Sequence record: OQ411014.1
Source of the DNA: Escherichia phage EJP2
Direction: 5' to 3' (one strand)
DNA: 64,000 nt
How positions within the stretch are numbered: position 1 is the stretch's first letter; every line of letters starts with the position of its first letter. The notes under the pieces are model-generated. The model was not told where the DNA came from, did not search any database, and worked only from the letters and a program-made list of their open reading frames with translations. Of the stretch, positions 43,482 through 58,963 are shown piece by piece. The translations under genes and the position numbers were made by a program.

Positions 43482-43485
43482 AATG

Positions 43486-44732: not shown

Positions 44733-45854
44733 TTAAAAGGGCAACGGTAACTCAGTAAAAGTACTTACGTTCGGTAAACCATACATTAAATTAGCATCAC
44801 CACAGTAATACCACTTCGTAGAATCATGTACCACCGATAAACGCTGTGCACATAACACTTCCTGTATGTCATTAAACACCATCGGGACTAACTCATATGT
44901 ATCCGCATATGAAGATTCACCACCACTCGCATGAAAAGTATTCATCCCAGCATAAAATAACTGATTAGTGTTCTTACCCACAGCAAATGTCATCAATATC
45001 CCATCATTCTCCCATAAAGAAGAAAACTTATCAACACTACCAGAAAGCTCTGTGTAAGTACTCGTAATGGCACTCGCAGCCGCCGCATTACCCATCTGTT
45101 TATTCAAGTTCTGTCCAGCAATAAAATATCTCGTGCGTGCACTAGAATCAGTATATAATAACCCAGTGTTCGTAGTCATCATTCCAATGTCCTTAATCGT
45201 CATACCAGTCTGTGAATAACTTAGATACGAAGTTAAACTACCATTATTACCCAACGAACCGTTATCACTCATGCCACAACGATGTAATATACCACTTGTA
45301 TCAACGTAGATAGTACTAACTAAACTCGTATACAACTCTTGTACATTATTCGCAATAAACACAGCAGTCGCCTTATTAGTAACCCCACCAAATGATAGGT
45401 TATTATCAAATCCCTTAGCGTATAATTGATTATTAGTAGTAACTAACCCAATCGCGTAATAAGATATTTTCATATCCCTTACAGTACTCAAATCTACTAC
45501 CCCAAATTGATGCGTAACATCTGTCCATGTGAAAATCTGTGCACTACCAACACCACCCGTTTCAAACCATTTGTCACCACAGTACAATATGCGATTATCC
45601 TTAGTAAAGATAACTGTTACCAATCCACTACCACACGCAAACTTTACATCACTTCTAACCTTCGTCCAATCAAGTACATAGGTAGTGGTGTTATTACCTA
45701 TACCTAACTTACCATAACGGTTATAACCACGCACCCACAAATCACCACTCTCAGTAATTAATAGTAATGCGTCTCCTGTACTTATTATTCGAAATCCCGA
45801 ACTAGGATCGGGTGCTATATTCCCATAAGTCATCATTCTTGCAAAAGGCAACAT
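44733..45854 (-). CDS. beta-propeller-like paralog, N-terminal MLPFARMMTYGN
   Basis: 373 aa; WVRGYNRYGKLGIGNN repeat. Confidence 0.8.
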   Translation of the reverse strand: MLPFARMMTYGNIAPDPSSGFRIISTGDALLLITESGDLWVRGYNRYGKLGIGNNTTTYVLDWTKVRSDVKFACGSGLVTVIFTKDNRILYCGDKWFETGGVGSAQIFTWTDVTHQFGVVDLSTVRDMKISYYAIGLVTTNNQLYAKGFDNNLSFGGVTNKATAVFIANNVQELYTSLVSTIYVDTSGILHRCGMSDNGSLGNNGSLTSYLSYSQTGMTIKDIGMMTTNTGLLYTDSSARTRYFIAGQNLNKQMGNAAAASAITSTYTELSGSVDKFSSLWENDGILMTFAVGKNTNQLFYAGMNTFHASGGESSYADTYELVPMVFNDIQEVLCAQRLSVVHDSTKWYYCGDANLMYGLPNVSTFTELPLPF

Positions 45855-45935
45855 AATAAAATCTCCGTAATTAAATCATACAGTATTTACAAAATACCAG
45901 CACATATTTCAGTACTGGTATAGTGGTATATTAAA

Positions 45936-47084
45936 TCACTGCACAAATGACATATCAACTTCTGTGTAACTAGGCACGCTCTGTGTAGAAAGACCACCCA
46001 TTGCTACCATCGCAATTCCACAATAATATAACTTCCCTTTGTCATCGAGTAACAATGTCCCAGATGGTGTTGTTACTAAATTACACGAAGTATTAAAAGA
46101 AGTATATGAAGGAGTATAGTAGTACTGATTAATGGTATTACCTACACCTAATTTTCCATACCCATTGCCGCCAGATGCGTAAAGTACTTCATCTGCTTTG
46201 ACAATATGTGATGCCATGTTACTAACACACGTATATACAGCACTAACTCCTGTACTCAATAATGTAGGAGTCTTGTATTGGAGATCAGTACTGGAAGATG
46301 TTCCACCTGTACCAAATTCATTACCGTATTGTGCACCGTATTGTTTACCACATCCGTACAAATTACCATCACTCTTAATAAAAAACGTACTCTGGTAACT
46401 TACATTAAAATCAATAACATCTGATGCAATCTGCTTTACTCCAGTGATAGAAACCTGATCCCCTGTACCTAACTGATAGTAATAGTTAAATCCACATCCC
46501 CATAAGGTATTGTCTGTACGCAAATAAATGTTACCAACAGCCTTTTTAACAGACGTTATAGTACTGACCTTCTTGAATGTATTAAATGAACTAATGTTTG
46601 TACCATCTCCAAAGGATGTTATATTAGATATGTTATTAGCACCACAACAATATAATGTACCGTCATTTGTTACCAAATTCACCTTCATATTATTAAAACT
46701 ACTCATGTACGCAATATCCGAAACAGTAATACCACTGGATGTTATCCACGTAGTACAATCCGTCCATAACGTCTTTCTATCAGTTACACCAGTGAATGCA
46801 TTTGTGTTTCCAGTCATAAACACTTTCCCTGTGCCCTCTTCTTCATACAACTGACAATCACTGCTGTTATCTTCCAATAGAACTCTTTTAACGTTCTCTG
46901 CACATAGAATAAATTTACTCGCAGCTACTCCAGTTCCCGTACCATAAATGCTTCCAGATGATGCATACAACTTTTTAGTGAAAGTATCATGTAAGTATAC
47001 AGACATACTAGAATATATTTTAAAACGATCATCGTTAGTAGGAGCAACATTACTGTACTCCAATATCCTCGCAAAAGGTAACAT
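45936..47084 (-). CDS. beta-propeller-like paralog, N-terminal MLPFARILEYSN
   Basis: track ORF to 47099; ATG at 47084; Gly/Thr/Asn-rich repeats. Confidence 0.75.
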   Translation of the reverse strand: MLPFARILEYSNVAPTNDDRFKIYSSMSVYLHDTFTKKLYASSGSIYGTGTGVAASKFILCAENVKRVLLEDNSSDCQLYEEEGTGKVFMTGNTNAFTGVTDRKTLWTDCTTWITSSGITVSDIAYMSSFNNMKVNLVTNDGTLYCCGANNISNITSFGDGTNISSFNTFKKVSTITSVKKAVGNIYLRTDNTLWGCGFNYYYQLGTGDQVSITGVKQIASDVIDFNVSYQSTFFIKSDGNLYGCGKQYGAQYGNEFGTGGTSSSTDLQYKTPTLLSTGVSAVYTCVSNMASHIVKADEVLYASGGNGYGKLGVGNTINQYYYTPSYTSFNTSCNLVTTPSGTLLLDDKGKLYYCGIAMVAMGGLSTQSVPSYTEVDMSFVQ

Positions 47085-47123
47085 AACTAAATTCTCCATA
47101 CAATAATTATAATGTATTTAACC

Positions 47124-47153
47124 AAAAAAAGCCAGCACCTTTCAGTACTGGTA
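47124..47153 (-). terminator. rho-independent terminator within array
   Basis: minus strand: accagtactgaaaggtgctggc followed by T7. Confidence 0.6.
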
Positions 47154-47162
47154 TCTATAATC

Positions 47163-48059
47163 CTATGTAAAAACATACTGCGTGTTAACACGTGTACCAT
47201 TGTCAAAACCAAGCACATAAAATATCTCAGGACTATTATTAGAACCAAATAACGCTCCAGTACTACTACTCAAAGTACTATTAACCGCTAACGCAATCCA
47301 TTCGTTTTGTTCTTGGTCGTATCTCAATAAATTTAATGCACCAAATGATACTGCATATATTTGTTTATCATATGTATTGTAAATTATTTTACTAGGGTTA
47401 GAACCACCAACACCAGCAATGTTAGACCACACAGCACTCTGTATATGATATTTTTGTGCAGTACTCACACCTTGGCCTGTAATATATATGTAAGTACCAT
47501 CTGTACACATATCACCACCACCATTGTTATTTGTACCATCACTCGTACCTAATGATGCCCAGGTATTAGTACTAGGAGTATAACTGTATAACGAATTATT
47601 AGTAGGAGATCCCCACAAATATATCTTATCACCAGCAGTAATCATCTTACTATACGCCAGTTGATTAGGCTTCCCAATACTGTTAGTGTTCAGAATCCAG
47701 GTATTTGTACTTATATTATATACATAAAAATTATTAGCACCATTACCAGTACCACCAAACAAATATATTTTCCCCTCATAAAAACATAACGCACTACCAA
47801 ATGTAGATACAGGTGCATTGGCTAATTGTAACCACGTTCTAGTACTTAAATTAAAACTCCATAACTGATTATCCCCCATCACCGCATTCTGTATACCACC
47901 AAATATATAAGCAGTATTACTTTTCGCATCATACGTATAACCAAAGTTATTTTTAGCAGGAGGTACAGGTGATGTCGTAAATGCAGAACGTATTCCCCTA
48001 TTGGTAGCAAACACCTCTGCAACATTCCCGTACTCCAACATCCTTACAAAAGGTAACAT
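47163..48059 (-). CDS. Kelch-like beta-propeller paralog, N-terminal MLPFVRMLEYGN (short member)
   Basis: 298 aa; Kelch-type spacing: AYIFGG...WSFNLSTRTW...KIYLFGG...YVYNISTNTW. Confidence 0.75.
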   Translation of the reverse strand: MLPFVRMLEYGNVAEVFATNRGIRSAFTTSPVPPAKNNFGYTYDAKSNTAYIFGGIQNAVMGDNQLWSFNLSTRTWLQLANAPVSTFGSALCFYEGKIYLFGGTGNGANNFYVYNISTNTWILNTNSIGKPNQLAYSKMITAGDKIYLWGSPTNNSLYSYTPSTNTWASLGTSDGTNNNGGGDMCTDGTYIYITGQGVSTAQKYHIQSAVWSNIAGVGGSNPSKIIYNTYDKQIYAVSFGALNLLRYDQEQNEWIALAVNSTLSSSTGALFGSNNSPEIFYVLGFDNGTRVNTQYVFT

Positions 48060-48136
48060 AACTAATTCTCCAAAATTAAAATAATTATAATGTATTTACA
48101 AAAATACCAGCACCTTTCAGTACTGGTATAGTAGTA

Positions 48137-49246
48137 TTATATCGGTAAATCTATCTTAGTGAAAATACCAACATCTTCACTCGCTCCAGGTATTGCATAA
48201 TATGTCCCAGTACTGTACACTTCACCATCTTTTGTTAATATAGATGTTAAACCATCACTATAAAGAACATCCCTGATATCACTAACTCCAACTGGTAACT
48301 GCAAATTCGTTGCACTATAAACCGCTCCAGTCTGAGAATTGTTTAATCCTAAACCACGGTTTGAACCTACACCCTTCTGATATGTACTAGTAATTATAAT
48401 TTGTGTAGCAGTATTTAATGCAGGTGAATTCGTCATAAACAACGGAGAACTATTAGGCAAAGAACTTGCAGGAACTGCACGAAATGTAGTTGCATCTGAA
48501 CTAAGAAAGTTTGGCGTTTGACCACATACGAAATATGATGTACCATTATAGTAATTAAATGCATTACCACCTATAGCTGCATCTATTACTCCAGTACTAC
48601 GTAATCCCCACGTGTTAATTTGTGTTCGGTTCCCCGTACCATGCTGACCCCTGTCATTCCACCCAGAACTATATAACTTATTATCTAATGTAATATACAT
48701 ACTGTCATTTGCATTCGTCATTACTTTACGCACATTAGTAGCACATTGAGTTAATGTGTAAATTGATGATGAACCAATACCTAAAGCACCACGATATCCA
48801 TTAGCCCCTGCACCATAGAGTACTGAACTAGTGCTAAGTACAAATATTAAACCATACGAACATACTATATCAGCAATTTCATTTACCGATAGTACACTAG
48901 TAAACCACGCAGTCCTATCAACTAATACAGTACTGTAAGAAGTCCCAGTAGAAGACGAAAACCAATAAGTCTCACCAGTAGTCCATATAGTATTGTCACT
49001 CTTAATAACAACAACTGTACGATCACCAGCAAAAAAATTAGTAACTCCTGTACTCACTAATGTCCATGAAGATACAGTGTTCGTATTGTTATTACCCGAT
49101 TCCCCACCCTGATTCCTACCTATGTAATATAATTCATTCGTGTCAGTCAACACATACTGCCCCTGCGTCGATGCCCCAACCTTAATTATATTTTTAGGAC
49201 CGGGTGCAACATTCCCGTACTCCAACATCCTTACAAAAGGTAACAT
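48137..49246 (-). CDS. RCC1-like beta-propeller paralog, N-terminal MLPFVRMLEYGN
   Basis: 369 aa; LYSSGWNDRGQHGTGN, LYGAGANGYRGALGIG; 10 bp downstream of 49257-50387. Confidence 0.8.
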   Translation of the reverse strand: MLPFVRMLEYGNVAPGPKNIIKVGASTQGQYVLTDTNELYYIGRNQGGESGNNNTNTVSSWTLVSTGVTNFFAGDRTVVVIKSDNTIWTTGETYWFSSSTGTSYSTVLVDRTAWFTSVLSVNEIADIVCSYGLIFVLSTSSVLYGAGANGYRGALGIGSSSIYTLTQCATNVRKVMTNANDSMYITLDNKLYSSGWNDRGQHGTGNRTQINTWGLRSTGVIDAAIGGNAFNYYNGTSYFVCGQTPNFLSSDATTFRAVPASSLPNSSPLFMTNSPALNTATQIIITSTYQKGVGSNRGLGLNNSQTGAVYSATNLQLPVGVSDIRDVLYSDGLTSILTKDGEVYSTGTYYAIPGASEDVGIFTKIDLPI

Positions 49247-49256
49247 ATTTCTCTCC

Positions 49257-50387
49257 TTAATTTAATAATGCCCCTGGCAAATCCACTTTGACGAATTGTG
49301 CATATGCTGTGGAATTTTGATCAAAGTTTGGTCCCAATCCATAAAATGAGCTAATGCCGTCTTCATTTGTGTATATGATATAAACGTTCTTTACATCATT
49401 TCCGCATATAAATCGAATGTCTTTCGTTTGTGTTCCCGCTGGAACATTACGAAGGCTCACAACGCCATTACTTGCATTGTTATCAGCCGACGCAATTGGT
49501 AATTGATTTTGACCATATTGACCACGCATATTTTTTGCATCTAAACCAAACACAGTATTTGATACCGCACCAACTTTCAAAAATGAACCAAAACTATCAT
49601 TGAATGACTTTGGAAATGTACCACTATAAACACTTCTCCCATCTGATAATACCGCTGAACTGAATTTCCCGCTATTCGATATGGCAAATTCATTGTAAGG
49701 AAGTGTACCCATTTTGGTATATACAGAATATGAATTAGTGGAAGTATTATCAATAATCTTATTACCATTATATCCAATACCATACTGGTATCCGTCTGCA
49801 TCTTGAACTATACACAAAGGACCACTTGGGGTTTGTGTCAACGAAACAACACGTTCAACTTGTATATCACCAAATGTATTTCTTCGCCATGTTCTATCTA
49901 TTATAGTACTAGTATTACCCAAAGATAATGCCACACTATATAATAGATTGTTTTCAGTAAAAATGGCAACATAATATGCGTGGTTAATAACTTGCTTCAT
50001 CCCAGCATCAATAACTTCCTGTGGAATATGATCAGTAACATCCAACCAATCAAGGTTAGATGATGCAATATCTGGAGTACTGAATTTGTCAAATCTAGTT
50101 GAGCCACAAACTAGCACTCTATCATCATTTGTCAAAGCCACTGTGCTAGTCTGCATATTAGAACTGAATGATTTAACATTACTAATGTTAGACTTGTACC
50201 AACCCTTATCAGCAGCACCCACCGTGAATCCGGTTCCCATTGATCCACTTGTACTTGTACCATAAGCCCACATCTCACCACTATATGTTAGTGCCATACA
50301 GTGGCTTCCATTTGCTTGGAAATCCTTTATACCAGTGGGAGCAGCCACTGTATTCCCATAATTAAACATTCTAACAAAAGGTAACAT
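49257..50387 (-). CDS. beta-propeller-like paralog, N-terminal MLPFVRMFNYGN (first gene of array)
   Basis: track ORF to 50396; conserved ATG at 50387; upstream conserved gtaaatactatataat motif. Confidence 0.75.
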   Translation of the reverse strand: MLPFVRMFNYGNTVAAPTGIKDFQANGSHCMALTYSGEMWAYGTSTSGSMGTGFTVGAADKGWYKSNISNVKSFSSNMQTSTVALTNDDRVLVCGSTRFDKFSTPDIASSNLDWLDVTDHIPQEVIDAGMKQVINHAYYVAIFTENNLLYSVALSLGNTSTIIDRTWRRNTFGDIQVERVVSLTQTPSGPLCIVQDADGYQYGIGYNGNKIIDNTSTNSYSVYTKMGTLPYNEFAISNSGKFSSAVLSDGRSVYSGTFPKSFNDSFGSFLKVGAVSNTVFGLDAKNMRGQYGQNQLPIASADNNASNGVVSLRNVPAGTQTKDIRFICGNDVKNVYIIYTNEDGISSFYGLGPNFDQNSTAYAQFVKVDLPGALLN

Positions 50388-50501
50388 AATAATCATCCCT
50401 ATACAATAAAATTATATAGTATTTACCAAAACAACTATTGACAACACAATAGCAGTACTGTATAGTATAGCAATAAAATTCCCACATAAAGGCCCAACAA
50501 C

Positions 50502-51194
50502 ATGAAACTCTCTAAACTACAAAAGCACTACAATTCAGTACTGAAAGCTACTAAAGCAGCTAATACACTACTATTCAATGAACCCCCAAAAAATATATTC
50601 AAACATATACCCAAAATGTATATAACAAAATCCCCAAATAAAATCCTTAAAAAGATTTCACAAAAATATAACATAACAATTGCTCACGTAGGTAAGTCCA
50701 AATCAAACCATAAACTATCATTCAGTACTAAAGCTAATGAAAGAACTACATTCATAGAATTTTCACTGTACAATATCCCGTGCGTTCTTTGGATCTCACC
50801 AGCAGTATACTTCGATGCTACATCTAAAGTGCATATAAACAATTCGTACAAAAACTTATTCTCATTCAATAATATCGACGACACACAACAACCAAGAGTC
50901 TCACTAGCAAATTCCGGCGATTCATACTTATCAGATAAAATACAAAACTCTAAACTAATCGTAACTACACCTAATAAAGAACTACAAAAAGTACTAGCTA
51001 AAAATCTGCACACAACCTATAAGAACTATACAGAAGAAGAAATCTTCCAACAATCTCTAGTACTACCTAATGCAGAACTCTATATAGCAGCACAAAACAT
51101 AAACATAAAAATAGCAGAACTAATCTCTAATAACAACTGTACTATAAAAGATATTATATACACTATAGCTAATGAAACTATTCATAACATATAA
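50502..51194 (+). CDS. basic protein, LQKHY family (copy 4, right flank of array)
   Basis: 230 aa; MKLSKLQKHY N-terminus and EEEIFQQSLVLPNAELY segment match the 31381-33346 family. Confidence 0.6.
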   Translation: MKLSKLQKHYNSVLKATKAANTLLFNEPPKNIFKHIPKMYITKSPNKILKKISQKYNITIAHVGKSKSNHKLSFSTKANERTTFIEFSLYNIPCVLWISPAVYFDATSKVHINNSYKNLFSFNNIDDTQQPRVSLANSGDSYLSDKIQNSKLIVTTPNKELQKVLAKNLHTTYKNYTEEEIFQQSLVLPNAELYIAAQNINIKIAELISNNNCTIKDIIYTIANETIHNI

Positions 51195-51292
51195 AAGTAT
51201 ATAGGAAGAGAATACTATATAGATATCTATACTATTACTATAGGGAGAGAAAACTATATAGGCTATACTTCAGTACTATACTATATAGGAAC
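51195..51292. repeat. cluster of CTATATAGG/CTATAGGGAGA iteron-like motifs
   Basis: about five copies of actatatagg/ctataggg within ~100 bp; one copy is ttactatagggagaga. Confidence 0.5.
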
Positions 51293-51300
51293 AGAAAACA

Positions 51301-51328
51301 CAGTAAGAACAGTAAGAACAGTAAGCAC
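51301..51328. repeat. tandem 9-bp repeat (cagtaagaa x3)
   Basis: cagtaagaacagtaagaacagtaagcac. Confidence 0.6.
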
Positions 51329-51756
51329 TATTACAGTACTATAAGCACTAAGGGTGTTTGCTCCGTAGAGAGAACGTTCTCCTATATAGGGGGATGGCCT
51401 TTAGATAATCCCCCTGGACAAAACGTTATCGAACGGATTCAACACCCCGTCCAGGGGGCATTTATTAATATACAGTCCTAGATGAATTAATATAAAAAGT
51501 ACGATATAACATTACATACACGATGGCAGTACTAGAGTTCATGGGACGATTGTGTATAAGACTTCAGTACTATAGACAATACTTCAGTACTGACCCCCTT
51601 GCACTATATCTTCTTAGTACGTAAGAGTACAAGAAGTATTTTTCAGAGCCTGTACTTTTTTGTCAAAGCCTTTCCCTTCCCCAGCGTAAAAGTACTTTTC
51701 AGTACTGTCAAAATTACCTTCCACCCTCCAGCAAAAAGTTGGTTAGTACTCCATCC

Positions 51757-51848
51757 TAAATCCCGATCCTAAAAATTTTGGAGTACCAACGAAATTAAAT
51801 CCCGATCCTAAAAATTTTGGAGTACCAACGAAATTAAATCCCGATCAT
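51757..51848. repeat. tandem direct repeat, 39-bp unit x2.3
   Basis: taaatcccgatcctaaaaattttggagtaccaacgaaat repeated exactly, then a partial third copy. Confidence 0.75.
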
Positions 51849-52380
51849 CAAAAGTTCAAATTTACCTTGACGTGTTCATGATTTCTCTCTATAGTACTGG
51901 CTAATGTTCAGTACTGAATGATGTTTTTCACTATAGGGTAAATTAATCTCCTATATAGTAGAAATTAGGGCTTGACTAAATCTTTCAGTACTGTATAATG
52001 ATTTGCATAGGGAGAGAAATCACCGCAAAAGATTTTGAACCTTATGCCTCCTGTCGTGAGACAGTACCGAAGAGATTGACCCTCCTATGCTGGTGGTCAT
52101 CTTGGACAACTAGTTTTCTCTATTCATCCTAAACAGTACTGTTACATCCCTCTGAGCAATCAGGTGACAGTACTGATATTAATCCACCAGCGTCGTTCTA
52201 ACGATGCTAATGATAAACAACGTATATAGTACTACATGATAGTCTTTGTATCTTCTGGGTGAGTTATGAGGGTTATGATGGCAGTACTGTATACACTCCT
52301 ATTAAGAAGTTACAGATACACTAAGGGCGTACTATGGGTAAATTTTGGGCGTACTTGTGCTAGGAAGGATTTAGCCGTAG

Positions 52381-52580
52381 AGACACCTAGACCTCCAGAC
52401 TCCTGGATGGATAGATGGATTTCCATCTAGACGGCTAAACGGCTAGATTGCTGGATGGATAGATGGCTAGCCATTTAGACGGCTAAACGGCTAAACGTCC
52501 GAACGTCTAGAAGTCTGGCGGTATGGATGGCTAAACGTCTGGACTGATAAACGTCTAACCATCTGGACGGCTAAAAATCA
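52381..52580. repeat. cluster of short direct repeats and palindromes
   Basis: ctggatggatagatgg x2; tagacggctaaacgg x2; ggctaaacg x4; aaacgtc x3; palindromes agatgga-tt-tccatct and atggct-agccat. Confidence 0.7.
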
Positions 52581-52753
52581 TTAGTGTCATTTTCAAGCAT
52601 TGGCTAGCCTACCGCGTCGGGGTAAATTCCCCAGCAGTATCGAACGTTAGATTTTTCTGAATCTGGAATCATTATCTTATAAACTGGGGGCAATGTCAAC
52701 GGCCTGGACGGATATTTTTAAAATTTTTTTCAGTACTGAATTTTGGGCGTAAC

Positions 52754-53030
52754 TATGCACCCGGTGGGCTTGAGTCTTTCTCGACTTGATGGAACTATTA
52801 TACAGTACTGAATTTTTAAAGCAATACCATAAACGCAAAAAGTTTTAATTAATTTGCTTGCTATCCTGGGCCGGACTATGGTACTATATTTCAGTACTGA
52901 GAAAGTGCGTTTACCTGCTAGGGTGCGGGAGTGTATCCTTTTTTTATATCTTGAATTTTGGGCGTAATTCCGCACCCTCTGGGGTTTCCGCTTTCTCGCG
53001 TCTATGTAGTAATTATACGCTTTTTCAGGA
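52754..53030. repeat. two diverged copies of the tatgcacccggtggg / agggtgcgg inverted-repeat element
   Basis: gaattttgggcgtaa...gcaccc...tttctcg...attata present twice; agggtgcgg ... ccgcaccct inverted repeat. Confidence 0.45.
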
Positions 53031-53298
53031 TCAAGTCAATACCTAAAAACAAAATAATTGAAAATAATTTAACGCGTTTAAACGACCCGTAAAGCCCTGG
53101 AATGGTTGGAATGGTGCAAATGTATAGCTTAGGGGTAATAATGCGTTAGAATGCGTCTGAGGCCGTTTTACGGGGTATAGGGATGATTTAGTGGATTGAT
53201 TCAGTACTGAATGATAGTTCCCCTGGATGGTTGCAGTACTGAATAATAGTTCCCCTATATAGAAAGAAAACTATTTTAAAAGTATTTGTAGAAAGTAC

Positions 53299-53360
53299 TT
53301 GCACCGTACTGATAAAAGCGTATAATGTTTTACATCGAGAGCGGGAACACTTCCCGCTAC
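53299..53360 (+). promoter_or_regulatory. early-type promoter + 5' leader hairpin module
   Basis: TTGCAC-N16-TATAAT then gagagcggga-aca-cttcccgc. Confidence 0.7.
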
Positions 53361-53381
53361 ACTTTAAAAGAGATTAAAACG

Positions 53382-53744
53382 ATGGCAACTCAAATCACCA
53401 AAATTATTGCTAACCTGGTTAACTTCCGCGACGAGATGAAAGATCTTCCGGCGGCGACGGTTAAAACTCACATTGACGCATACCGCGAACTGATTAAAAT
53501 GCTGCCGCTTAAGCGTGAACAATACGCCGCCACCGTGATGCTTGATGCGATGATCCATAAGATGATCGCCAGTGATTTGACGATGGTTTATCAGTACATG
53601 GGCGAAAAATTCTCGGTGTATAGTAAACCAGTCCCAGGCATGGCAACAACTGAGGAATTGCACTGCCTTAACTTAAAGCAAGATGCATGGGATAATATGC
53701 CGCGTTTCATGGTATGGGTAGAAAGTGGTAAAATTTACGAATAA
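53382..53744 (+). CDS. hypothetical small protein
   Basis: track ORF starts at ATG inside the -10 box (53325); ATG at 53382 follows the leader hairpin (120 aa). Confidence 0.6.
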   Translation: MATQITKIIANLVNFRDEMKDLPAATVKTHIDAYRELIKMLPLKREQYAATVMLDAMIHKMIASDLTMVYQYMGEKFSVYSKPVPGMATTEELHCLNLKQDAWDNMPRFMVWVESGKIYE

Positions 53745-53757
53745 GTTAAAAATTAGT

Positions 53758-53819
53758 TTGACAGTACTGAATAAAAGCGTATAATGTTTTATATCGAGAG
53801 CGGGAAGAGTTCCCGCCTC
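53758..53819 (+). promoter_or_regulatory. early-type promoter + leader hairpin
   Basis: TTGACA-N16-TATAAT then gagagcgggaa-gag-ttcccgcctc. Confidence 0.7.
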
Positions 53820-53839
53820 CATTAAAGAGGAATTAAAAA

Positions 53840-54064
53840 ATGACTACTAAAACTTTCAACGGCCATAAAAACTACAACCATTGGAATGTTAGCCTTTGGA
53901 TCAATAACGATGAATCACTGTACCAATTGGCCCTGGAATGTATTAAAAGCACCAACACGCGAGATAAAGCGGTTGAGCGGATGTTACGCCTTTTAGGTAC
54001 TCACACGCCTGATGGGGCACGTTATAGCAAATCAAGCGTTCGTGCGGCAATGGTTGGAATGTAA
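53840..54064 (+). CDS. hypothetical small protein (paralog of 56336-56575)
   Basis: 74 aa; shares HWNVSLWINNDESLY and C-terminal AAMVGM. Confidence 0.6.
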   Translation: MTTKTFNGHKNYNHWNVSLWINNDESLYQLALECIKSTNTRDKAVERMLRLLGTHTPDGARYSKSSVRAAMVGM

Positions 54065-54076
54065 TAGAATATATTT

Positions 54077-54107
54077 AAAGTACTATCATTCTATGCGATA
54101 GTACTTT
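54077..54107 (+). terminator. hairpin, possible terminator
   Basis: aaagtactatc-N9-gatagtacttt (11-bp stem); weak T-run. Confidence 0.4.
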
Positions 54108-54157
54108 ATAATAGTGTTCTAACATACAGTACTCACTTAACTAATAGGATGTATACC

Positions 54158-54535
54158 ATGATCATTAAATTCTACGCTACCCGTGAAATCGCTCGCATCG
54201 TTGCCCGTACCGAAGGAGAAACCTTTAAAGATATGGGAACGAGTGCTGAGAAGGGTAAACGCTGGGCGGTACAGTTCAAAGAATTATCAGATATTATTAA
54301 TTCACCTGAGCCAGTACTGACAGCGGCAGAACAAGCGAAAGCCAATGAGCTGGCGGATCTTCTGAATGGTGTCAATGTGAACGTTAAAGTTAATGCGGCG
54401 GCCTGGTCACATGCTGATGCACTGGCAGCTTTAAAAAGTCCTGATAGTGTATCTCGTCGAGTGGTAGAAATAAAGCACGACCGCAAGGGCAACCGCGTTA
54501 CAGTATACAGTAAGCGTAAAATTGCAGTACTGTAA
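54158..54535 (+). CDS. hypothetical protein
   Basis: ATG at 54158 with RBS tagga 8 nt upstream (alternative ATG at 54149); 125 aa. Confidence 0.55.
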   Translation: MIIKFYATREIARIVARTEGETFKDMGTSAEKGKRWAVQFKELSDIINSPEPVLTAAEQAKANELADLLNGVNVNVKVNAAAWSHADALAALKSPDSVSRRVVEIKHDRKGNRVTVYSKRKIAVL

Positions 54536-54551
54536 TAATTCAAAAAAGTAC

Positions 54552-54614
54552 TTGCACAGTACTGAATAAAGCGTATAATGTTTTATATCGAGAGCGGGAA
54601 GAGTTCCCGCCTCC
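54552..54614 (+). promoter_or_regulatory. early-type promoter + leader hairpin
   Basis: TTGCAC-N16-TATAAT then gagagcgggaa-gag-ttcccgcctc. Confidence 0.7.
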
Positions 54615-54633
54615 ACTTAAGAGGAATTAAAAA

Positions 54634-54864
54634 ATGACTACTATGTATATGATCGAAGTTAAAACCGTAAAAGATACGACCACGAATAAAACTACTTACT
54701 TACAGCGGATCTGCGGTGTCTGGCAACGTATCAGCAAATCAAAGTACTTTAAATTAACATCATATGCAAATCGTTCGGATTCATTCAGTACTGAAATAAA
54801 AGGTAATAAAGTACACCAATACGGCACTTATTATTATTACAGCCTGGACGCGATTGCAGTATAA
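54634..54864 (+). CDS. hypothetical small protein
   Basis: 76 aa; RBS aagaggaa. Confidence 0.6.
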   Translation: MTTMYMIEVKTVKDTTTNKTTYLQRICGVWQRISKSKYFKLTSYANRSDSFSTEIKGNKVHQYGTYYYYSLDAIAV

Positions 54865-54897
54865 TCATATTTTTTGAAAAATTTACAATTGCCGGTA

Positions 54898-54926
54898 TTG
54901 ACTTATTTTGTCAGTACTGGCATAAT
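54898..54926 (+). promoter_or_regulatory. type-II promoter (TTGACT-N17-CATAAT)
   Basis: ttgacttattttgtcagtactggcataat; converges on minus-strand promoter 55049-55077. Confidence 0.55.
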
Positions 54927-55048
54927 GTATTCATTGGCAGATAAGCCGTAGCCCATAGGGTGCGGAGATGTATCTATAGAAAAAGTAGTTTAGTATAGTT
55001 ACAGTTATGCACCCGGTGGGTTAGTGACTTTCTCGTCTTTATGTAGCT

Positions 55049-55077
55049 ATTATGCCAGTACTGGATAGTGCTGTCAA
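55049..55077 (-). promoter_or_regulatory. minus-strand type-II promoter inside repeated element
   Basis: reverse complement reads TTGACA-gcactatccagtactgg-CATAAT. Confidence 0.55.
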
Positions 55078-55121
55078 TACTTTTTTCTATTCAGTACTGA
55101 AAAAGTATTTGTAGAAAGTAC

Positions 55122-55149
55122 TTGCATAGTACTGAATAAAGCGTATAAT
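55122..55149 (+). promoter_or_regulatory. early-type promoter driving structured-RNA element
   Basis: TTGCAT-N16-TATAAT. Confidence 0.65.
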
Positions 55150-55156
55150 GTTTTAT

Positions 55157-55226
55157 ATCAGGACGGGGAAGAGATTCACTGTTAAGTAGTCTAGGTGTAA
55201 GACGTATGAAAAACACCCCTGATAAA
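55157..55226 (+). ncRNA. candidate small structured RNA / leader element (copy 1 of 3)
   Basis: atcaggacgggga ... cccctgat closing helix; conserved core gttaagtagtc.agg.gtaagac.ta.gaaaa; no ORF. Confidence 0.35.
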
Positions 55227-55241
55227 AGAATTAAAAAGTAC

Positions 55242-55305
55242 TAGACAGTAAGAAATAAAAAGCGTATAATGTTTTACATCGAGTAGGGGGAATGGTTCTC
55301 CTACC
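55242..55305 (+). promoter_or_regulatory. promoter + leader hairpin
   Basis: TAGACA-N17-TATAAT then gtaggggga-atgg-ttctcctac. Confidence 0.6.
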
Positions 55306-55324
55306 TAAATTAAGGAATTACAAA

Positions 55325-55924
55325 ATGAATACTATCGTTAAATCTTTCGCAGACCTGGACGCAGAACAGAAGATCGCAGCGGTTGAAATGTATACAGACC
55401 GTGAAAAAGATAGCTCGGAAGATTTCTTTTCCGAAGGTGTAGTGGAATATTACCGTGAAACGGTACTACCTGAATACGGCATAGATGAAGCTGAATTGCA
55501 ATACAGTGGTTTTTGGTCGCAAGGTGACGGTGCATCAATCAGTACTGACAGCGTGGACGCGGAGAAGTTTTTACGCAAGATTAAAGCGTTAACGAAATAT
55601 CGTTCTATCCGTCACTTGTTGAATGAAGATGATTTGGCAATGAGTGTAGAACGTTCACACTCTCGCTACGCACACGAAAACACGGTAAGCGGATACATTG
55701 AAACGGCGTACACTGATTTAACTGTAAAACAAGCGGCACTTGCTGATGACCTGGAAAACGTACTGACCGAAACTATCCGCGAATTGTCTTGTGAACTGTA
55801 CCGTGAACTTGAGAAGGCTTATGATGATTATTACAGTACTGAAAGCATGGTTAATCAAATCGAGGGTAATGGTTACCAGTTTGAAGTAAACGAAGATGGC
55901 GACGTGGTAGGGATTGAATACTAA
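55325..55924 (+). CDS. hypothetical acidic protein
   Basis: track ORF from 55292; ATG at 55325 follows RBS aaggaa (199 aa). Confidence 0.6.
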   Translation: MNTIVKSFADLDAEQKIAAVEMYTDREKDSSEDFFSEGVVEYYRETVLPEYGIDEAELQYSGFWSQGDGASISTDSVDAEKFLRKIKALTKYRSIRHLLNEDDLAMSVERSHSRYAHENTVSGYIETAYTDLTVKQAALADDLENVLTETIRELSCELYRELEKAYDDYYSTESMVNQIEGNGYQFEVNEDGDVVGIEY

Positions 55925-55932
55925 AAAAGTAC

Positions 55933-55994
55933 TTGCATAGTACTGAATAAGGCGTATAATGTTTTATATCGAGAGCGGGAACACTTCCCGCCTC
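55933..55994 (+). promoter_or_regulatory. early-type promoter + leader hairpin
   Basis: TTGCAT-N16-TATAAT then gagagcgggaa-cac-ttcccgcctc. Confidence 0.7.
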
Positions 55995-56017
55995 ACATTA
56001 AGAGGAATTAAAAAAAA

Positions 56018-56251
56018 ATGAGTACTATCTTAACCGTTTCTCAATCTGTTGCCCTGGCTGACTTGTTGAACGCTTTAAGCCGTTGTACTGAGGTTGGCTT
56101 GTTTGATGTGGTTGACGTTGCCCCTGATGTTATCAATCATTTTTGTGATGCAATGGCTGAATGCCAGGAAGATGATCGCCGTATGATGGCGGTAAACTTT
56201 GCGGAAGTCCAGCCGGGAGAGTTAAAAGGTTTACCGGAAGTTAAAAATTAG
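56018..56251 (+). CDS. hypothetical small acidic protein
   Basis: 77-aa ORF. Confidence 0.6.
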   Translation: MSTILTVSQSVALADLLNALSRCTEVGLFDVVDVAPDVINHFCDAMAECQEDDRRMMAVNFAEVQPGELKGLPEVKN

Positions 56252-56252
56252 T

Positions 56253-56314
56253 TTGACAGTACTATCAAATAGTGTATAATGTTTTATATCGAGAGCGGGA
56301 ATGGTTCCCGCCTC
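56253..56314 (+). promoter_or_regulatory. early-type promoter + leader hairpin
   Basis: TTGACA-N16-TATAAT then gagagcgggaa-tgg-ttcccgcctc; overlaps 3' end of upstream gene. Confidence 0.7.
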
Positions 56315-56335
56315 CAATTAAGAGAGATTAATATC

Positions 56336-56575
56336 ATGGCAACTACTAAAACTTACAACGGTTACAAAAACAAAACTCATTGGAACGTTTCTTTGTGGAT
56401 CAATAACGATGAATCATTGTACCGCCTGGCGAAAGAGTTTATCGACGATAACGCTAATCGTGAAGATGCAGCCCGTCAGATGATGCTCTTTCTGGAACAA
56501 ACTGGACAAGATAAAACACCGGACGGCTTTAAGTATAGTACTACTGCGATCCGTGCGGCAATGGTTGGAATGTAA
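56336..56575 (+). CDS. hypothetical small protein (paralog of 53840-54064)
   Basis: track ORF from 56279; ATG at 56336 (79 aa). Confidence 0.6.
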   Translation: MATTKTYNGYKNKTHWNVSLWINNDESLYRLAKEFIDDNANREDAARQMMLFLEQTGQDKTPDGFKYSTTAIRAAMVGM

Positions 56576-56584
56576 AAAAAAGAG

Positions 56585-56645
56585 TAGACAGTACTGAATA
56601 AAAGCGTATAATGTTTTATATCGAGAGCGGGAATGGTTCCCGCTA
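56585..56645 (+). promoter_or_regulatory. early-type promoter + leader hairpin
   Basis: TAGACA-N16-TATAAT then gagagcgggaa-tgg-ttcccgc. Confidence 0.65.
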
Positions 56646-56664
56646 CTAACCTGGAGTAATTGCA

Positions 56665-56850
56665 ATGCTGAATATTTTAATCGTTGATGAACATGGTAAA
56701 GAACTGGAATCATTTGAGTCTATGATCAATCCAATTGGTTCAAAGACTATCACTACTAATCTGGCTGTTTATGAATGTAATGAGTTTTCTGTTGACTTTA
56801 AACGCAATGAGATTGTAGTACACGTTCAAAATGATTTTATGAAATTTTAA
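56665..56850 (+). CDS. hypothetical small protein
   Basis: 61-aa ORF. Confidence 0.55.
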   Translation: MLNILIVDEHGKELESFESMINPIGSKTITTNLAVYECNEFSVDFKRNEIVVHVQNDFMKF

Positions 56851-56858
56851 AATAGTAC

Positions 56859-56920
56859 TTGCATAGTACTGAATAAGGCGTATAATGTTTTATATCGAGA
56901 GCGGGAATGGTTCCCGCCTC
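56859..56920 (+). promoter_or_regulatory. early-type promoter + leader hairpin
   Basis: TTGCAT-N16-TATAAT then gagagcgggaa-tgg-ttcccgcctc. Confidence 0.7.
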
Positions 56921-56939
56921 ACTATTAAGGAATACTACA

Positions 56940-57161
56940 ATGGCTAATATCACTACTCTTTCCCAACTTGAAGCACTGGTTAAATCTATGCGTGACCATG
57001 CCAATAGTATTGGTGTACAAGATCCGGCGGTATGTTTTTGTGACGAATTGAATGATGATACTTTAATCATTGCAGAAGTCCAGGACGTTTCCAACTATTC
57101 ATCGCGTTACACTGGCGACGTAGCAAATAAAGGTGACTTCTGTTTATACCTTACAAAATAA
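56940..57161 (+). CDS. hypothetical small protein
   Basis: track ORF from 56907; ATG at 56940 follows RBS aaggaa (73 aa). Confidence 0.6.
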   Translation: MANITTLSQLEALVKSMRDHANSIGVQDPAVCFCDELNDDTLIIAEVQDVSNYSSRYTGDVANKGDFCLYLTK

Positions 57162-57165
57162 TAAC

Positions 57166-57195
57166 AACGGGGATAATAACTCCCCGTTACTTTTT
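57166..57195 (+). terminator. rho-independent terminator
   Basis: aacgggga-taataac-tccccgtt followed by acttttt. Confidence 0.65.
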
Positions 57196-57266
57196 CAGTA
57201 CTGAATCATTTAATAGACGGATCTATGCACCCGGTGGGTTAGTGACTTTCTCGTCTTTATGTAGCT

Positions 57267-57295
57267 ATTATGCCAGTACTGGATTGTATTGTCAA
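57267..57295 (-). promoter_or_regulatory. minus-strand type-II promoter inside repeated element
   Basis: reverse complement reads TTGACA-atacaatccagtactgg-CATAAT. Confidence 0.55.
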
Positions 57296-57338
57296 GCATT
57301 TAAAGTACATTTATTTTAAAAAGAATATGAAGAAAGTA

Positions 57339-57396
57339 CTATACACGGCTGAATAAAAGCGTATAATGTTTTGCATAGGGGGAAACAACTTCCCCC
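57339..57396 (+). promoter_or_regulatory. promoter (weak -35) + leader hairpin
   Basis: TATAAT at 57362-57367; hairpin agggggaa-acaac-ttccccc. Confidence 0.5.
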
Positions 57397-57418
57397 ACTA
57401 ATTAAGAGAGAAATAAAA

Positions 57419-57625
57419 ATGGCTAAATGTACTATTTGTAATAAAGCAATTGTGCTAGTTCCTTCCGCTAGTGAACGTGCTAAACGTTATGGTGGCAAAG
57501 CGTCAGACTATACAAAAATGTTCACTACTCATACTGAATGTGCTATTAAAAAACGTTCAGAAGAAAGCACTGAATTAATGCGTCGAATTGTCGCGGAATC
57601 AAAAGCTAAAAAAGTACTTGCATAA
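57419..57625 (+). CDS. hypothetical small Cys/His protein
   Basis: track ORF from 57371; ATG at 57419 (68 aa); MAKCTICNK...HTEC. Confidence 0.55.
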   Translation: MAKCTICNKAIVLVPSASERAKRYGGKASDYTKMFTTHTECAIKKRSEESTELMRRIVAESKAKKVLA

Positions 57626-57673
57626 CTTATTCAGTACTGTACAATGTTTTTCAAAGGGGGAACAACTTCCCCC
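57617..57673 (+). promoter_or_regulatory. early-type promoter + leader hairpin
   Basis: TTGCAT-N16-TACAAT then agggggaa-caac-ttccccc; -35 lies in last codons of upstream gene. Confidence 0.65.
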
Positions 57674-57693
57674 GCTAATTAAGGAATAAGAAA

Positions 57694-57930
57694 ATGGCTG
57701 AACAAATTAAATCAACGTCTTCGAATGTGACGGGTACTGTAGCTCACTTTATCGGTGATGAATCGCGTGGTGTTCCCTATTGTGCGGTGCATGTAAACAC
57801 TGAGGGTAACTACTGGTTTACAGTTTACGGATCATATTCATTTGGACGACCTGGACACCAAAAAATCCTGGATAAAGTACAACCAACGGGTAAAAATATC
57901 ACTGCTGAAATGTTTTATAAAAAATCATAA
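57694..57930 (+). CDS. hypothetical small protein
   Basis: 78 aa; RBS aaggaataag. Confidence 0.6.
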   Translation: MAEQIKSTSSNVTGTVAHFIGDESRGVPYCAVHVNTEGNYWFTVYGSYSFGRPGHQKILDKVQPTGKNITAEMFYKKS

Positions 57931-57936
57931 AAGTAC

Positions 57937-57997
57937 TTGCATAACTTATTCAGTACTGTACAATGTTTTATATCGAGAGCGGGGAATACTTCCTCGC
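57937..57997 (+). promoter_or_regulatory. early-type promoter + leader hairpin variant
   Basis: TTGCAT-N16-TACAAT then gagagcggggaatacttcctcgcc. Confidence 0.6.
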
Positions 57998-58018
57998 CTT
58001 AACTAAAAGGATATACTA

Positions 58019-58318
58019 ATGAAAATTGCACTAATCGCCCTGGCCTTGTCTGTTTCCTCTTTCGCCGCTACTGCATCGCGTGATGTACCAACTGAAAAAT
58101 TTATTCAGTGCCAGGTTATCATGACAGACGAAAACACGGGCGGCATGTTTACCAAACCGCTTGAATTAAATCCGGCGATGTTTAAGGCGGGGATGTTCCA
58201 CGAAGAAGACGAAAAAGGCAGTACTACAATCTATTACGACGAACAACGTAAACGCGGCACTGTTACGGTAATGGATGAATCATCAGTTACCTTTACGGGG
58301 ATCATTACCTGTAAGTAA
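58019..58318 (+). CDS. putative secreted protein
   Basis: 99 aa; signal peptide MKIALIALALSVSSFAATA. Confidence 0.6.
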   Translation: MKIALIALALSVSSFAATASRDVPTEKFIQCQVIMTDENTGGMFTKPLELNPAMFKAGMFHEEDEKGSTTIYYDEQRKRGTVTVMDESSVTFTGIITCK

Positions 58319-58367
58319 TAAGGGGAATTATCATCATAACTTTCACTGGCGGTTAACAGTACTGAAT

Positions 58368-58389
58368 CATAGGGGGAATAGTTCCCCCT
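58368..58389 (+). promoter_or_regulatory. leader hairpin without obvious consensus promoter
   Basis: agggggaa-tag-ttccccct upstream of 58421. Confidence 0.35.
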
Positions 58390-58420
58390 TACTATATTAA
58401 ACATCAAAGGAGTAAAGGCA

Positions 58421-58690
58421 ATGGCTATCATCACGGCAAAGACTATCTATACTATTCAACATGGTAATCAGTCCTACCAGGTGGAAGGCGTGGAAGGTTT
58501 AAAACAGTACTGCGACGATATTATGGGCGGCCTGGTTGACCGTATGACGGCGGGGAATGTAGGCCATCATTTAACTGATAAGATGAATCAGCACGCTTTC
58601 TTGATGAAATCATTCGACGAGCTTGATCTAATCGTCGATACCGTTCGCAGTGTAAAACAGTATATTGATGATATAACCAAAGATGATTGA
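58421..58690 (+). CDS. hypothetical small protein (MAII- family)
   Basis: 89 aa; N-terminus MAIITAKTIYTIQ resembles 59639-59818. Confidence 0.55.
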   Translation: MAIITAKTIYTIQHGNQSYQVEGVEGLKQYCDDIMGGLVDRMTAGNVGHHLTDKMNQHAFLMKSFDELDLIVDTVRSVKQYIDDITKDD

Positions 58691-58709
58691 TAGTACTGTA
58701 AACGTGTAT

Positions 58710-58745
58710 AAGCCTGTAGAATCAATTCTACGGGCTTTTTTGTTT
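58710..58745 (+). terminator. rho-independent terminator
   Basis: gcctgtagaat-caa-ttctacgggc followed by T6. Confidence 0.7.
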
Positions 58746-58865: not shown

Positions 58866-58872
58866 GTTTTAC

Positions 58873-58948: not shown

Positions 58949-58963
58949 GTACTAAAAAGTAGT

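Follow-up and report, generated by a model that had tools for sequence, protein, structure and literature searches.

A gene-free leader, probably at the start of a long direct terminal repeat, and a MetJ-operator-like octamer array in Escherichia phage EJP2

What does a phage keep in 2.2 kb of DNA that is crowded with repeats and palindromes and holds no convincing gene? The stretch in question covers positions 51195-53381 of a 64-kb window (the whole length of DNA analysed here) from Escherichia phage EJP2 (OQ411014.1), and the original prediction had offered three answers: an origin of replication, a pac/cos site or a physical genome terminus. Compared with phage records by megablast, the region matched 45 entries, namely jumbo phages of the PBECO4/121Q type (genus Asteriusvirus; phages of Escherichia and Salmonella) plus one Erwinia phage, and by these matches the window is that of an Asteriusvirus-like (PBECO4/121Q-type) jumbo phage. 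We propose that a ~21-kb direct terminal repeat (DTR) of such a phage probably begins in this region, which would comprise the junction and the leader of the repeat, both non-coding. Within this leader, an array of 25 tandem octamers (52381-52580) fits the operator model of MetJ, the host methionine repressor that depends on S-adenosylmethionine (SAM).

Homology to mapped terminal repeats

Among query positions, 532-2187 alone (window 51726-53381) match the E. coli relatives, at ~77-94% identity, and this part aligns to positions 176/186 to ~1750 of those records that start at a mapped end. For CRJP21, ELP-22, BF17, fEgEco12, E9.1 and vB_Ec-M-J, the match is present at both ends and starts 176-186 nt after the record's first base; a 10-bp insertion in vB_Ec-M-J places 185 nt, as opposed to 175 in the others, between the end and the homolog of the most conserved segment (Block C, 51726-51795). 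The vB_Ec-M-J record annotates 1-21525 as 'Direct Terminal Repeats', and PhageTerm gave repeats of 20,993 bp for fEgEco12, confirmed by restriction fragments (PMC13070987), in a paper that counts only five such phages with known termini (PMC13070987). Repeats of ~20 kb were likewise obtained by PhageTerm or read coverage for BF17 (~20.5 kb), Sharanji (20,668 bp) and G17 (~20 kb). Both boundaries are common to vB_Ec-M-J and fEgEco12 (left end AGTAGGCAGAGGAAGTCTGCC, right end ...GGGCGGGTAACCT), and nine relatives keep the junction CAGTACTG-N11-12-cut-AGTAGGCAGAGG, 175 nt (185 in vB_Ec-M-J) before the Block C homolog.

Since the mapped starts of the relatives lie 175-185 bp before the homolog of 51726, the region corresponds to the junction between unique segment and DTR. 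Homology identifies 51726-53381 as the opening ~1.7 kb of the DTR, conserved and free of genes, and 51195 to ~51546 as the tail of the unique segment; nowhere in 51195-51725 is there end-proximal homology to the terminus-resolved relatives. The proposal of a physical genome terminus thus finds support in homology to phages with ends resolved by PhageTerm and restriction digests. A pac or cos site in the classical sense does not, as the relatives have fixed ends and ~21-kb direct repeats, with neither cohesive ends nor headful permutation; by analogy, one would expect the terminase to cut here at a specific sequence, as in T7 and T5. The record of Erwinia phage Hallingskeid lacks duplicated ends, and we set it aside as uninformative on termini.

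The order of genes also agrees with an Asteriusvirus terminal repeat: an array of ~15 RCC1-repeat paralog genes on the minus strand (33386-50396), then the junction, the gene-free leader and, rightward from 53382, numerous small plus-strand early genes with their own promoters. The first of these DTR genes (120 aa, probable start 53382) matches phrog_7352 at 3e-59 and forms, with an early promoter (TTGCAC-N16-TATAAT) and a 5'-untranslated region (5'-UTR) hairpin, a unit at 53299-53744 on the plus strand. To the left, a 230-aa plus-strand gene (50502-51194) adjoins the region. The region had been placed at a point of transcriptional divergence, between the minus-strand array (plus one flanking gene) and the early-type plus-strand genes. 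Its neighbors are as described, but the strand switch itself falls at 50397-50501, and the region therefore lies between two plus-strand genes and not exactly at the divergence point.

Left DTR ends of the Asteriusvirus type (fEgEco12, vB_Ec-M-J, CRJP21, BF17, G17, Sharanji) resemble this locus in having a gene-free leader of ~1.7 kb followed by small early genes, and have in common with it Block C, a first rightward promoter (P1), a leftward promoter and the octamer array. EJP2 differs from them in the ~175 bp by the end and the upstream flank, which are unrelated, in its 25 octamers (vs. 12-15), in an extra copy of a 39-bp repeat and in the absence of GTAATCA triplets. The terminal-repeat leader itself is of an already known type.

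The region encodes no protein. As originally claimed, it has no credible open reading frame (ORF): the longest is 81 aa, and none of the five longest matched PHROGs. Over 51860-53320, sites variable against nine relatives were spread evenly over the three phases (130/130/129, p-value 0.997), i.e., without 3-base periodicity, whereas the next three genes, taken as a control, had the expected third-position excess of substitutions (p-values 2e-7, 2e-3 and 2e-3). Searches of the region for tRNAs found none, nor did Rfam give any match even at E<=1, and curated annotations of relatives leave ~1.7-2 kb without genes at the equivalent place. A decayed or unusually encoded protein gene could be argued from the up to 10 small ORFs called here by some automated annotations of relatives. 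However, these ORFs differ between relatives, careful annotations leave the stretch empty, indels come in 8-bp steps, substitutions lack codon periodicity and no protein family matches, so that we regard such a gene as next to impossible; a hidden gene was rejected because of the ORF lengths, the outcome of PHROG and Pfam searches and the lack of periodicity in the substitutions. The reported density of repeats and palindromes in 51195-53381 is real, the individual items lying at, or within a few bases of, the positions first given for them.

The predicted left end and its flanks

The tail of the unique segment (51195-51546) is non-coding; E. coli Asteriusviruses lack a homolog of it, and Hallingskeid shares part of it. 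In a concatemer or a collapsed assembly, this tail directly precedes the terminal repeat. We place the predicted left physical end within 51527-51547, where CAGTACTA at 51527 is followed by 11-12 nt as in the junction of the relatives. By extrapolation, the first DTR base would be ~51546-51547, ~180 bp before Block C, and the right DTR boundary would fall near 72.5 kb, beyond the window, which would then end 12.4 kb into the presumed repeat. Of the conserved junction (CAGTACTG-N11-12-cut-AGTAGGCAGAGGAAGTCTGCC), only the CAGTACT motif and the spacing have a parallel here, and the end sequence AGTAGGCAGAGG is absent from 50-54 kb of the window.

Block C (51726-51795), which in relatives lies 175-185 bp inside the mapped end, is a candidate terminase recognition element. 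Its first 35 nt (51726-51760) are 100% identical in 31 phage records, with flanks at ~80%; in 12 aligned relatives, identity is ~92% over the next 25 nt and ~72% over the remainder. The block contains an inverted repeat, GTTAGTACTCCA-N25-TGGAGTACCAAC, with arms at 51736-51753 and 51779-51796. Under the proposed scheme, which draws on conservation and on the T7/T5 paradigm, the terminase would recognise the junction, most likely through Block C as the element of choice, and would cut at ~51547, 11-12 nt past the CAGTACT motif, to generate the left virion end. Assemblies of these phages (350 kb) usually reach the databases in collapsed form or with an arbitrary permutation, and Block C provides a sequence landmark ~175-185 bp from the true end.

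Around the mapped cut of E. coli and Salmonella Asteriusviruses, we also observed GTAATCA heptamers in the same orientation. They stand at -149, -129, -107 and +72, +82, +92 at the right junction of vB_Ec-M-J (the sole six copies in 8 kb) and occur near the cut in G17, 121Q, SP27, SD6 and two metagenome contigs, some of these with fewer copies. In the E. coli relatives, the two triplets (-149 to -107 and +72 to +92) may be further terminase elements; the EJP2 lineage is without them.

Leftward of Block C, the similarities are with other sequences. Hallingskeid is collinear with 51351-51641 at 67.7% identity, and metagenome contig L012 in part. Alignments read by eye single out Block A (51410-51450, 41 nt), which has one mismatch to Hallingskeid and sits inside a window-specific inverted repeat (CCCCCTGGAC...GTCCAGGGGG), and Block B (51583-51641), kept in both Hallingskeid and L012 and consisting of TTCAGTACTGACCCCCTTGCACTATATCTTCTT and a hairpin, whose stem, also by eye, is preserved by altered bases in L012. 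More broadly, the junction is mosaic: 50502-51725 (the 230-aa gene and the following 530 bp) is syntenic with Hallingskeid (5298-6380), where the corresponding protein is 25% identical and has the same MKLSxLQKHY start, and the E. coli phages carry ~20 small genes in the slot of the 230-aa gene, with a repeat to the right that is 77-94% identical.

Among sequences sought as closer relatives, IMG/VR yielded 121Q only, whereas exact-protein look-ups led to a nearly identical metagenome contig. Two metagenome contigs break off nearby. ERZ12343533 NODE_4160 (ENA, 13,756 bp), 97.8% identical to window 51480-63741 and without the 20-bp tandem duplication of EJP2 at 51553-51594, begins at window 51480, ~65 bp before the predicted DNA end, and L012 ends 188 nt upstream of Block C. 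These positions are no more than suggestive, as assembly breaks are not physical ends.

The left end of T7 offers a comparison: Dunn and Studier are said to have described there, in 1983, a terminal repeat, arrays of short repeats and the host-polymerase promoters A1-A3 before gene 0.3. The EJP2 locus is similar in its gene-free leader at a presumed fixed end, in short repeat arrays with strong predicted sigma-70 promoters behind them in the first kilobase, and in the direct repeats and sequence-specific terminase cut that we predict. It differs in repeat length (21 kb vs. 160 bp), the T7 short repeats being moreover of other sequence and irregular spacing. After DNA entry, host RNA polymerase would fire from the leader (one rightward and three leftward early-class promoters) and from the early promoters; a role of transcription in driving DNA entry, demonstrated for T7, is conjectural for EJP2.

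The octamer array and its fit to MetJ operators

The repeat cluster at 52381-52580 was correctly picked out as such, and the iteron reading given to it is the part that we revise, since the cluster fits a host repressor operator. It consists of 25 octamers in tandem (consensus AGACGKCT) with a strict 8-bp period (autocorrelation z ~10 at lags 8, 16, 24, 40 and 48), and the unit consensus, A/g-G/a-A-C/t-G-G/T-C-T, equals the E. coli metbox AGACGTCT save for a single ambiguous position. We scored it with the half-metbox weight matrix and the criteria of Augustus & Spicer 2011 (PMC3228920), i.e., at least two contiguous 8-bp boxes, each with at least a quarter of the consensus score, and a total no lower than the consensus score. 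Overall, 21 of the 25 units pass the metbox threshold, and they form four chains of 5, 11, 2 and 3 boxes (22.2, 81.6, 16.6 and 24.2 bits), which are the sole qualifying chains in all 64 kb; 30 shuffles reached at most 19.3 bits. As a positive control, 8.5 kb of E. coli K-12 returned the metJ/metB and metF operators alone (four boxes each, 31.2 and 24.9 bits).

The likeness goes beyond the consensus. An octamer drawn at random reaches the score of the array consensus in just 0.019% of cases (~0.15% when eight registers are allowed), and simulated variants with the same mismatch counts gave 9.0±1.9 passing units vs. the 21 found, and a mean unit score of 0.32±0.78 bits vs. 5.87 (0/5000 in both cases). 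Variation among the boxes is biased toward bases that MetJ tolerates, except at position 6, where G and T are about equally frequent, and at seven of the eight positions the minor base ranks second in frequency among genuine metboxes. In the relatives from E. coli and Salmonella, 12-15 boxes follow one another without interruption (85-109 bits) and lie 795-919 nt from the mapped end (805-916 in vB_Ec-M-J, 795-914 in fEgEco12), and their arrays vary by indels of 8, 16, 32 and ~40 bp. No MetJ homolog was found among 50,697 phage records, the three matches being bacterial sequences, and a host repeat element was rejected, the array having no match in 5,426 E. coli genomes. By these statistics the array fits the MetJ operator model; we infer that MetJ binds it.

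Set beside the E. coli metJ/metB and metF operators, the phage arrays have the same contiguous tandem 8-bp boxes, the same base preferences at seven of eight positions, similar scores per box (7.4-7.9 bits vs. 6.2-7.8) and the T-A box junction. Host operators, however, have 2-5 boxes overlapping a promoter, while the phages have 12-28 with no recognisable overlapping promoter, and about half of the phage boxes have G at position 6. In EJP2, a sigma-70 scan recognised no promoter overlapping the array.

For an origin of replication, the positive evidence amounts to the presence of repeats and a local minimum of cumulative GC skew. An iteron-type origin, with an initiator bound to the direct repeats, activation by transcription from the flanks and unwinding of a neighboring AT-rich stretch, could draw on the conserved repeat array between convergent promoters, on short AT-rich runs at 52712-52731 and 53040-53075 and on this skew minimum (~51.85-52.15 kb). 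As in lambda ori and iteron plasmids, the direct repeats lie in non-coding DNA with promoters nearby. But the skew also follows gene orientation and composition, the units measure 8 bp and not 17-22 bp with helical phasing, the array has a GC content of 42-45% (window mean, 37%) and no AT-rich unwinding element, DnaA boxes form no cluster, near-matches to them being rarer in the window than by chance, and the flanking genes contain no initiator domain. T4-type replisomes, in addition, start from R-loops or recombination and not from iterons. We thus consider an iteron-type origin highly unlikely. An origin defined by DnaA boxes was rejected too, near-matches being fewer than chance and a single box perfect; this match (TTATACACA, 51551-51559, minus strand) lies a few bases inside the predicted end.

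As a MetJ operator, the array would stand between two converging predicted promoters. P1 (51972-51999, plus strand), the first rightward sigma-70-type promoter, reads TTGACT-N16-TATAAT with CAGTACTG abutting the -10 hexamer and has no ORF downstream; it belongs to the early promoter family, and its TTGAC(A/T)/TATAAT consensus holds in all aligned relatives. The leftward promoter (52671-52699, minus strand) reads TTGACA-N17-GATAAT, both hexamers being invariant in all relatives, and its predicted transcript would reach the array after ~85 nt. MetJ-SAM would most plausibly load cooperatively on the array between these promoters, and the array could then act as a MetJ-titrating sink, as a SAM-sensing transcription roadblock or as an end-proximal nucleoprotein complex.

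A blastn search with the array returned 86 records, from phages of Escherichia (36), Vibrio (20), Erwinia (8), Serratia (6), Aeromonas (5), Salmonella (4), Cronobacter (2), Pectobacterium (2), Providencia (2) and Xanthomonas (1), and the hosts of 85 of them belong to orders listed as having MetJ. Arrays in other phages were checked by metbox matrix scoring. Among jumbo phages, vB_PcaM_CBB has 2+4+7 boxes at 685-804 of its 22,456-bp repeat, XbC2 2+4+8 boxes at 648-775 and pEa_SNUABM_12 2+5+4+3 boxes at 673-808. The T7-like PGT2 (Ermolevavirus) has nine boxes 38-109 nt from the end, present twice. In the T5 family, Vibrio phage Pontus has 15 boxes (484-603), Vibrio phage VPG01 nine (2949-3020, in a 1.4-kb non-coding gap) and Aeromonas phage AhSzq-1 an uninterrupted run of 28 (108799-109022, 221 bits). 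All lie in non-coding DNA, at or near sequence ends where ends are defined, and none of the host operators exceeds five boxes, vs. 9-28 in the phage arrays. It is tempting to generalize that DTR phages of at least three unrelated families (jumbo Rak2-like myoviruses, the T7-like Ermolevavirus, and T5-family phages of Vibrio and Aeromonas) carry end-proximal super-arrays of 9-28 MetJ operator boxes that recruit or soak up the repressor, an idea whose chances we put somewhat short of even. Such super-arrays could derepress methionine/SAM supply, gate leader transcription by SAM or protect the entering DNA end.

The array slot itself may be modular. In Hallingskeid (6940-7030) and contig L012 (3636-3742), the flanks of the array are kept and another repeat family occupies the same slot, with 4-5 palindromic units of ~21-23 bp, with 3-5 sites that agree with 13-14 of the 19 positions of the Fur-box consensus. 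Such matches are clustered far above slot shuffles (background in AT-rich DNA, ~0.6 per kb), and a Fur-box-like identity is only a lead. A different array in the same slot nevertheless suggests a modular site for host-repressor decoys.

Could the ligand of the array instead be encoded by the phage, for example a small terminase subunit or a protein that binds DNA ends, and the array belong to the packaging signal, its metbox likeness being coincidental or due to a similar ribbon-helix-helix reading head? The location of arrays within terminal repeats near mapped ends (J, fEgEco12, CBB, PGT2), the G at position 6 that half of the boxes share in all lineages, and the failure of the BF17 authors to find a recognisable small terminase are all consistent with this. 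The same box variants are found, however, in podo-, sipho- and myoviruses with unrelated packaging proteins. The restriction of array-bearing records to hosts from MetJ-possessing orders (85/86) also speaks against it, as does the lack of an array in Pseudomonas phage PA5oct, and Hallingskeid and L012 keep the leader and swap the array, which is unexpected for an essential packaging signal. We therefore find a phage-encoded ligand rather doubtful.

The T5-family arrays raise another alternative by analogy, a T5-like injection-stop signal at the inner edge of the repeat, at which DNA transfer would pause and which requires the right end to enter first. In the T5 record, a stretch of ~1 kb without genes, at 9140-10149 of the 10,219-bp left repeat, bears the annotation 'injection stop signal', and the T5 pre-early genes are largely transcribed toward the entering end. 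The arrangement here could be its mirror image, the inner edge of the right-hand copy being formed by a 1.8-kb leader rich in repeats and palindromes and the early genes running toward the right end, and octamer arrays do occur in T5-family phages of Vibrio and Aeromonas. The two systems also share a long repeat that carries the earliest genes and has a repeat- and palindrome-rich gene-free segment (~1 kb in T5) at one edge. On the other side, two-step transfer is not reported for this phage group, the stop region of T5 itself has no octamer array and its mechanism is not settled, and the PGT2 array, 38-109 bp from the end, is unfit for a distal stop site, which together make an injection-stop signal clearly unlikely.

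Several observations weigh against our own proposal of a DTR junction with a MetJ-binding array. The ~175 bp before Block C and all sequence to the left are non-homologous to the terminus-resolved relatives, and the cut site is therefore placed by positional analogy only. G is found at position 6 in about half of the phage boxes vs. ~10% of genuine host metboxes, so that a ligand other than MetJ, of similar specificity, is possible. The array-bearing XbC2, which shares its genus with Pectobacterium phage CBB, was isolated on Xanthomonas, whose order is absent from those listed with MetJ; T5 has no array, including in its annotated injection-stop region; and Hallingskeid has none although its host has MetJ. 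In PA5oct, a Pseudomonas relative, no array was found in 45 kb. A titration role is also hard to square with the rapid shut-off or degradation of the host genome by phages. Finally, a generic sigma-70 scan of the region was at chance level (14 found vs. 13.8 expected), and the promoter calls therefore rest on conservation and family resemblance.

If the array does bind MetJ, it would represent a virus with a large cis-acting host-repressor operator array rather than a protein effector, and phage entry or early transcription would be tied to the methionine/SAM state of the host, SAM being the cofactor of type I restriction, BREX defence and phage methyltransferases. Its recurrence in T7-like, T5-like and jumbo phages would, if true, make this a general feature of phages with fixed-end entry. 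Literature searches for metboxes in phages returned nothing, and the CBB paper does not mention the array; as far as we found, the literature searched describes neither the MetJ-type super-array nor its unit-wise evolution, nor the fact that it recurs in three phage families.

Promoters, candidate RNAs and short repeats

To the right of the leader, a stereotyped early cassette (AAAGTAC-TTGCAY-AGTACTGAATAAAAGCG-TATAAT-GTTTTAYATCGAGAG plus 5'-UTR hairpin) occurs in more than 20 copies on the plus strand between 53299 and 64000, the promoter being followed by the GC-rich 5'-UTR hairpin (GCGGGAAnnnTTCCCGC; variant stems, e.g., GGGGGAAACAACTTCCCCC), TTAAGAG and a start codon. Inside the leader, two leftward units on the minus strand are associated with the element TATGCACCCGGTGGG, which had been described as having diverged copies; we located one exact copy at 52754 and one diverged at 52968. 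The first unit (52729-52824) has a promoter TTGCTT-N16-TATAAT at 52797-52824 and, after it, a putatively transcribed element at 52754-52768, and is a candidate small antisense unit; the second (52920-53039) has TTGACT-N16-TATAAT at 53012-53039, the diverged element at 52968-52982 and a GC-rich stem (GGGTGCGG/CCGCACCC).

In the whole window, TATGCACCCGGTGGG has five exact copies vs. 0.55 expected, all inside the terminal repeat (52754, 55006, 57224, 61283 on the minus strand, and 63773). Transcription from a promoter with CAGTACTG in its spacer (TTGACA-N17-CATAAT or TATAAT) would reach each copy after ~25-45 nt. These promoters fire opposite to the printed element, i.e., leftward and against the plus-strand genes for the plus-strand copies, and some of the units are bounded by a bidirectional terminator. 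From this arrangement, the TATGCACCCGGTGGG units are candidate small antisense RNAs.

The region could then be mainly a non-coding RNA locus, with P1 and the three leftward promoters giving regulatory or antisense transcripts and the repeats acting as RNA-level elements. In the related phage PA5oct, DTR genes are transcribed early and depend on the host polymerase (PMC7318152), and RNA-seq revealed two abundant non-coding RNAs inside the terminal repeat (PMC7318152). Together with the conserved promoters that have no ORF downstream, the conserved hairpins and the constant distance of TATGCACCCGGTGGG from its leftward promoters, these RNAs favor such a locus, against which stand the absence of any Rfam match at E<=1 and the finding of 0-1 compensatory pairs in two long stems. 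A conserved long imperfect inverted repeat joining two CAGTACT motifs (52225-52293) has 26 predicted pairs and z=-5.9 vs. column shuffles. A conserved RNA structure was nonetheless set aside, as high consensus energies merely reflect high identity, with 0-1 compensatory pairs. RNA production as the main role of the region is in our view unlikely, and it would be compatible with, not opposed to, a DTR leader with an operator-like array.

The many AGTACT sites noted in the region are confirmed (21 vs. 0.7 expected), and the whole window has 294 vs. 21 expected. The longer palindrome CAGTACTG (extended form TTCAGTACTGAA) occurs 104 times in the window vs. 0.75 expected, a more than 100-fold enrichment, with 63 of the 104 copies in 1-50400. 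While 62 lie inside ORFs (frame counts 28/28/6), the other 42 fall in the 14% of the window that is intergenic, where the motif is ~5-fold denser. It is equally enriched in E. coli Asteriusviruses and in 30 kb of Hallingskeid coding DNA. Given this genome-wide enrichment, in several reading frames and also in relatives, AGTACT was rejected as a mark of origin or terminus, being specific to neither. CAGTACTG forms part of promoter spacers and terminator stems, and a literature search for the palindrome found no description. In the RCC1-paralog array, nearly all intergenic gaps have the same terminator hairpin, CCAGTACTG...GTACTGG and a T-run, followed by TAAATACATTATAAT.

Of the short repeats, the CTATATAGG/CTATAGGG motif was found where it had been reported, with five copies in the same orientation at 51195-51292 on the plus strand (51198, 51215, 51238, 51254 and 51281), each followed by a purine-rich GGRAGAGAA in a lineage-specific cluster. 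The motif recurs at 51382, 51931, 51951 and 53255, and in partial form at 52005. The copy at 51238 reads ttactatagggagaga, and a 12-mer within the cluster (ACTATAGGGAGA, 51237-51248) is identical to the core of the T7 class III promoter, from -6 to +6. This identity is probably a coincidence because no single-subunit RNA polymerase is reported for the phage group; a T7-like promoter reading of ttactatagggagaga was rejected, the group using host polymerase with a phage sigma factor and the motif being a local lineage-specific cluster, not a promoter found genome-wide.

The reported tandem repeats were recovered by Tandem Repeats Finder: the cagtaagaa repeat is a 9-bp unit (GAACAGTAA) present in 4.1 copies at 51289-51325 on the plus strand, and the 39-bp repeat (51757-51853, plus strand, 2.5 copies) includes two exact copies. 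The second exact copy is found in EJP2 only, relatives having one, and is a recent duplication. The program also listed a 16-bp unit in 4.4 copies at 52427-52497. At the right edge of the leader, a 32-bp repeat (TGGATGGTTGCAGTACTGAATAATAGTTCCCC) has two copies at 53192-53256 on the plus strand, a number that varies in relatives, and is followed by the conserved CCTATATAGAAAGAAAAC (53254-53272). The motif CTATATAG occurs nine times in 64 kb, seven of these within 51080-53255. CCTATATAGAAAGAAAAC is present in every relative, ~40-60 nt upstream of the first early promoter, and duplicated in some, and its conservation indicates that the CTATATAG motif is used at that spot across the genus.

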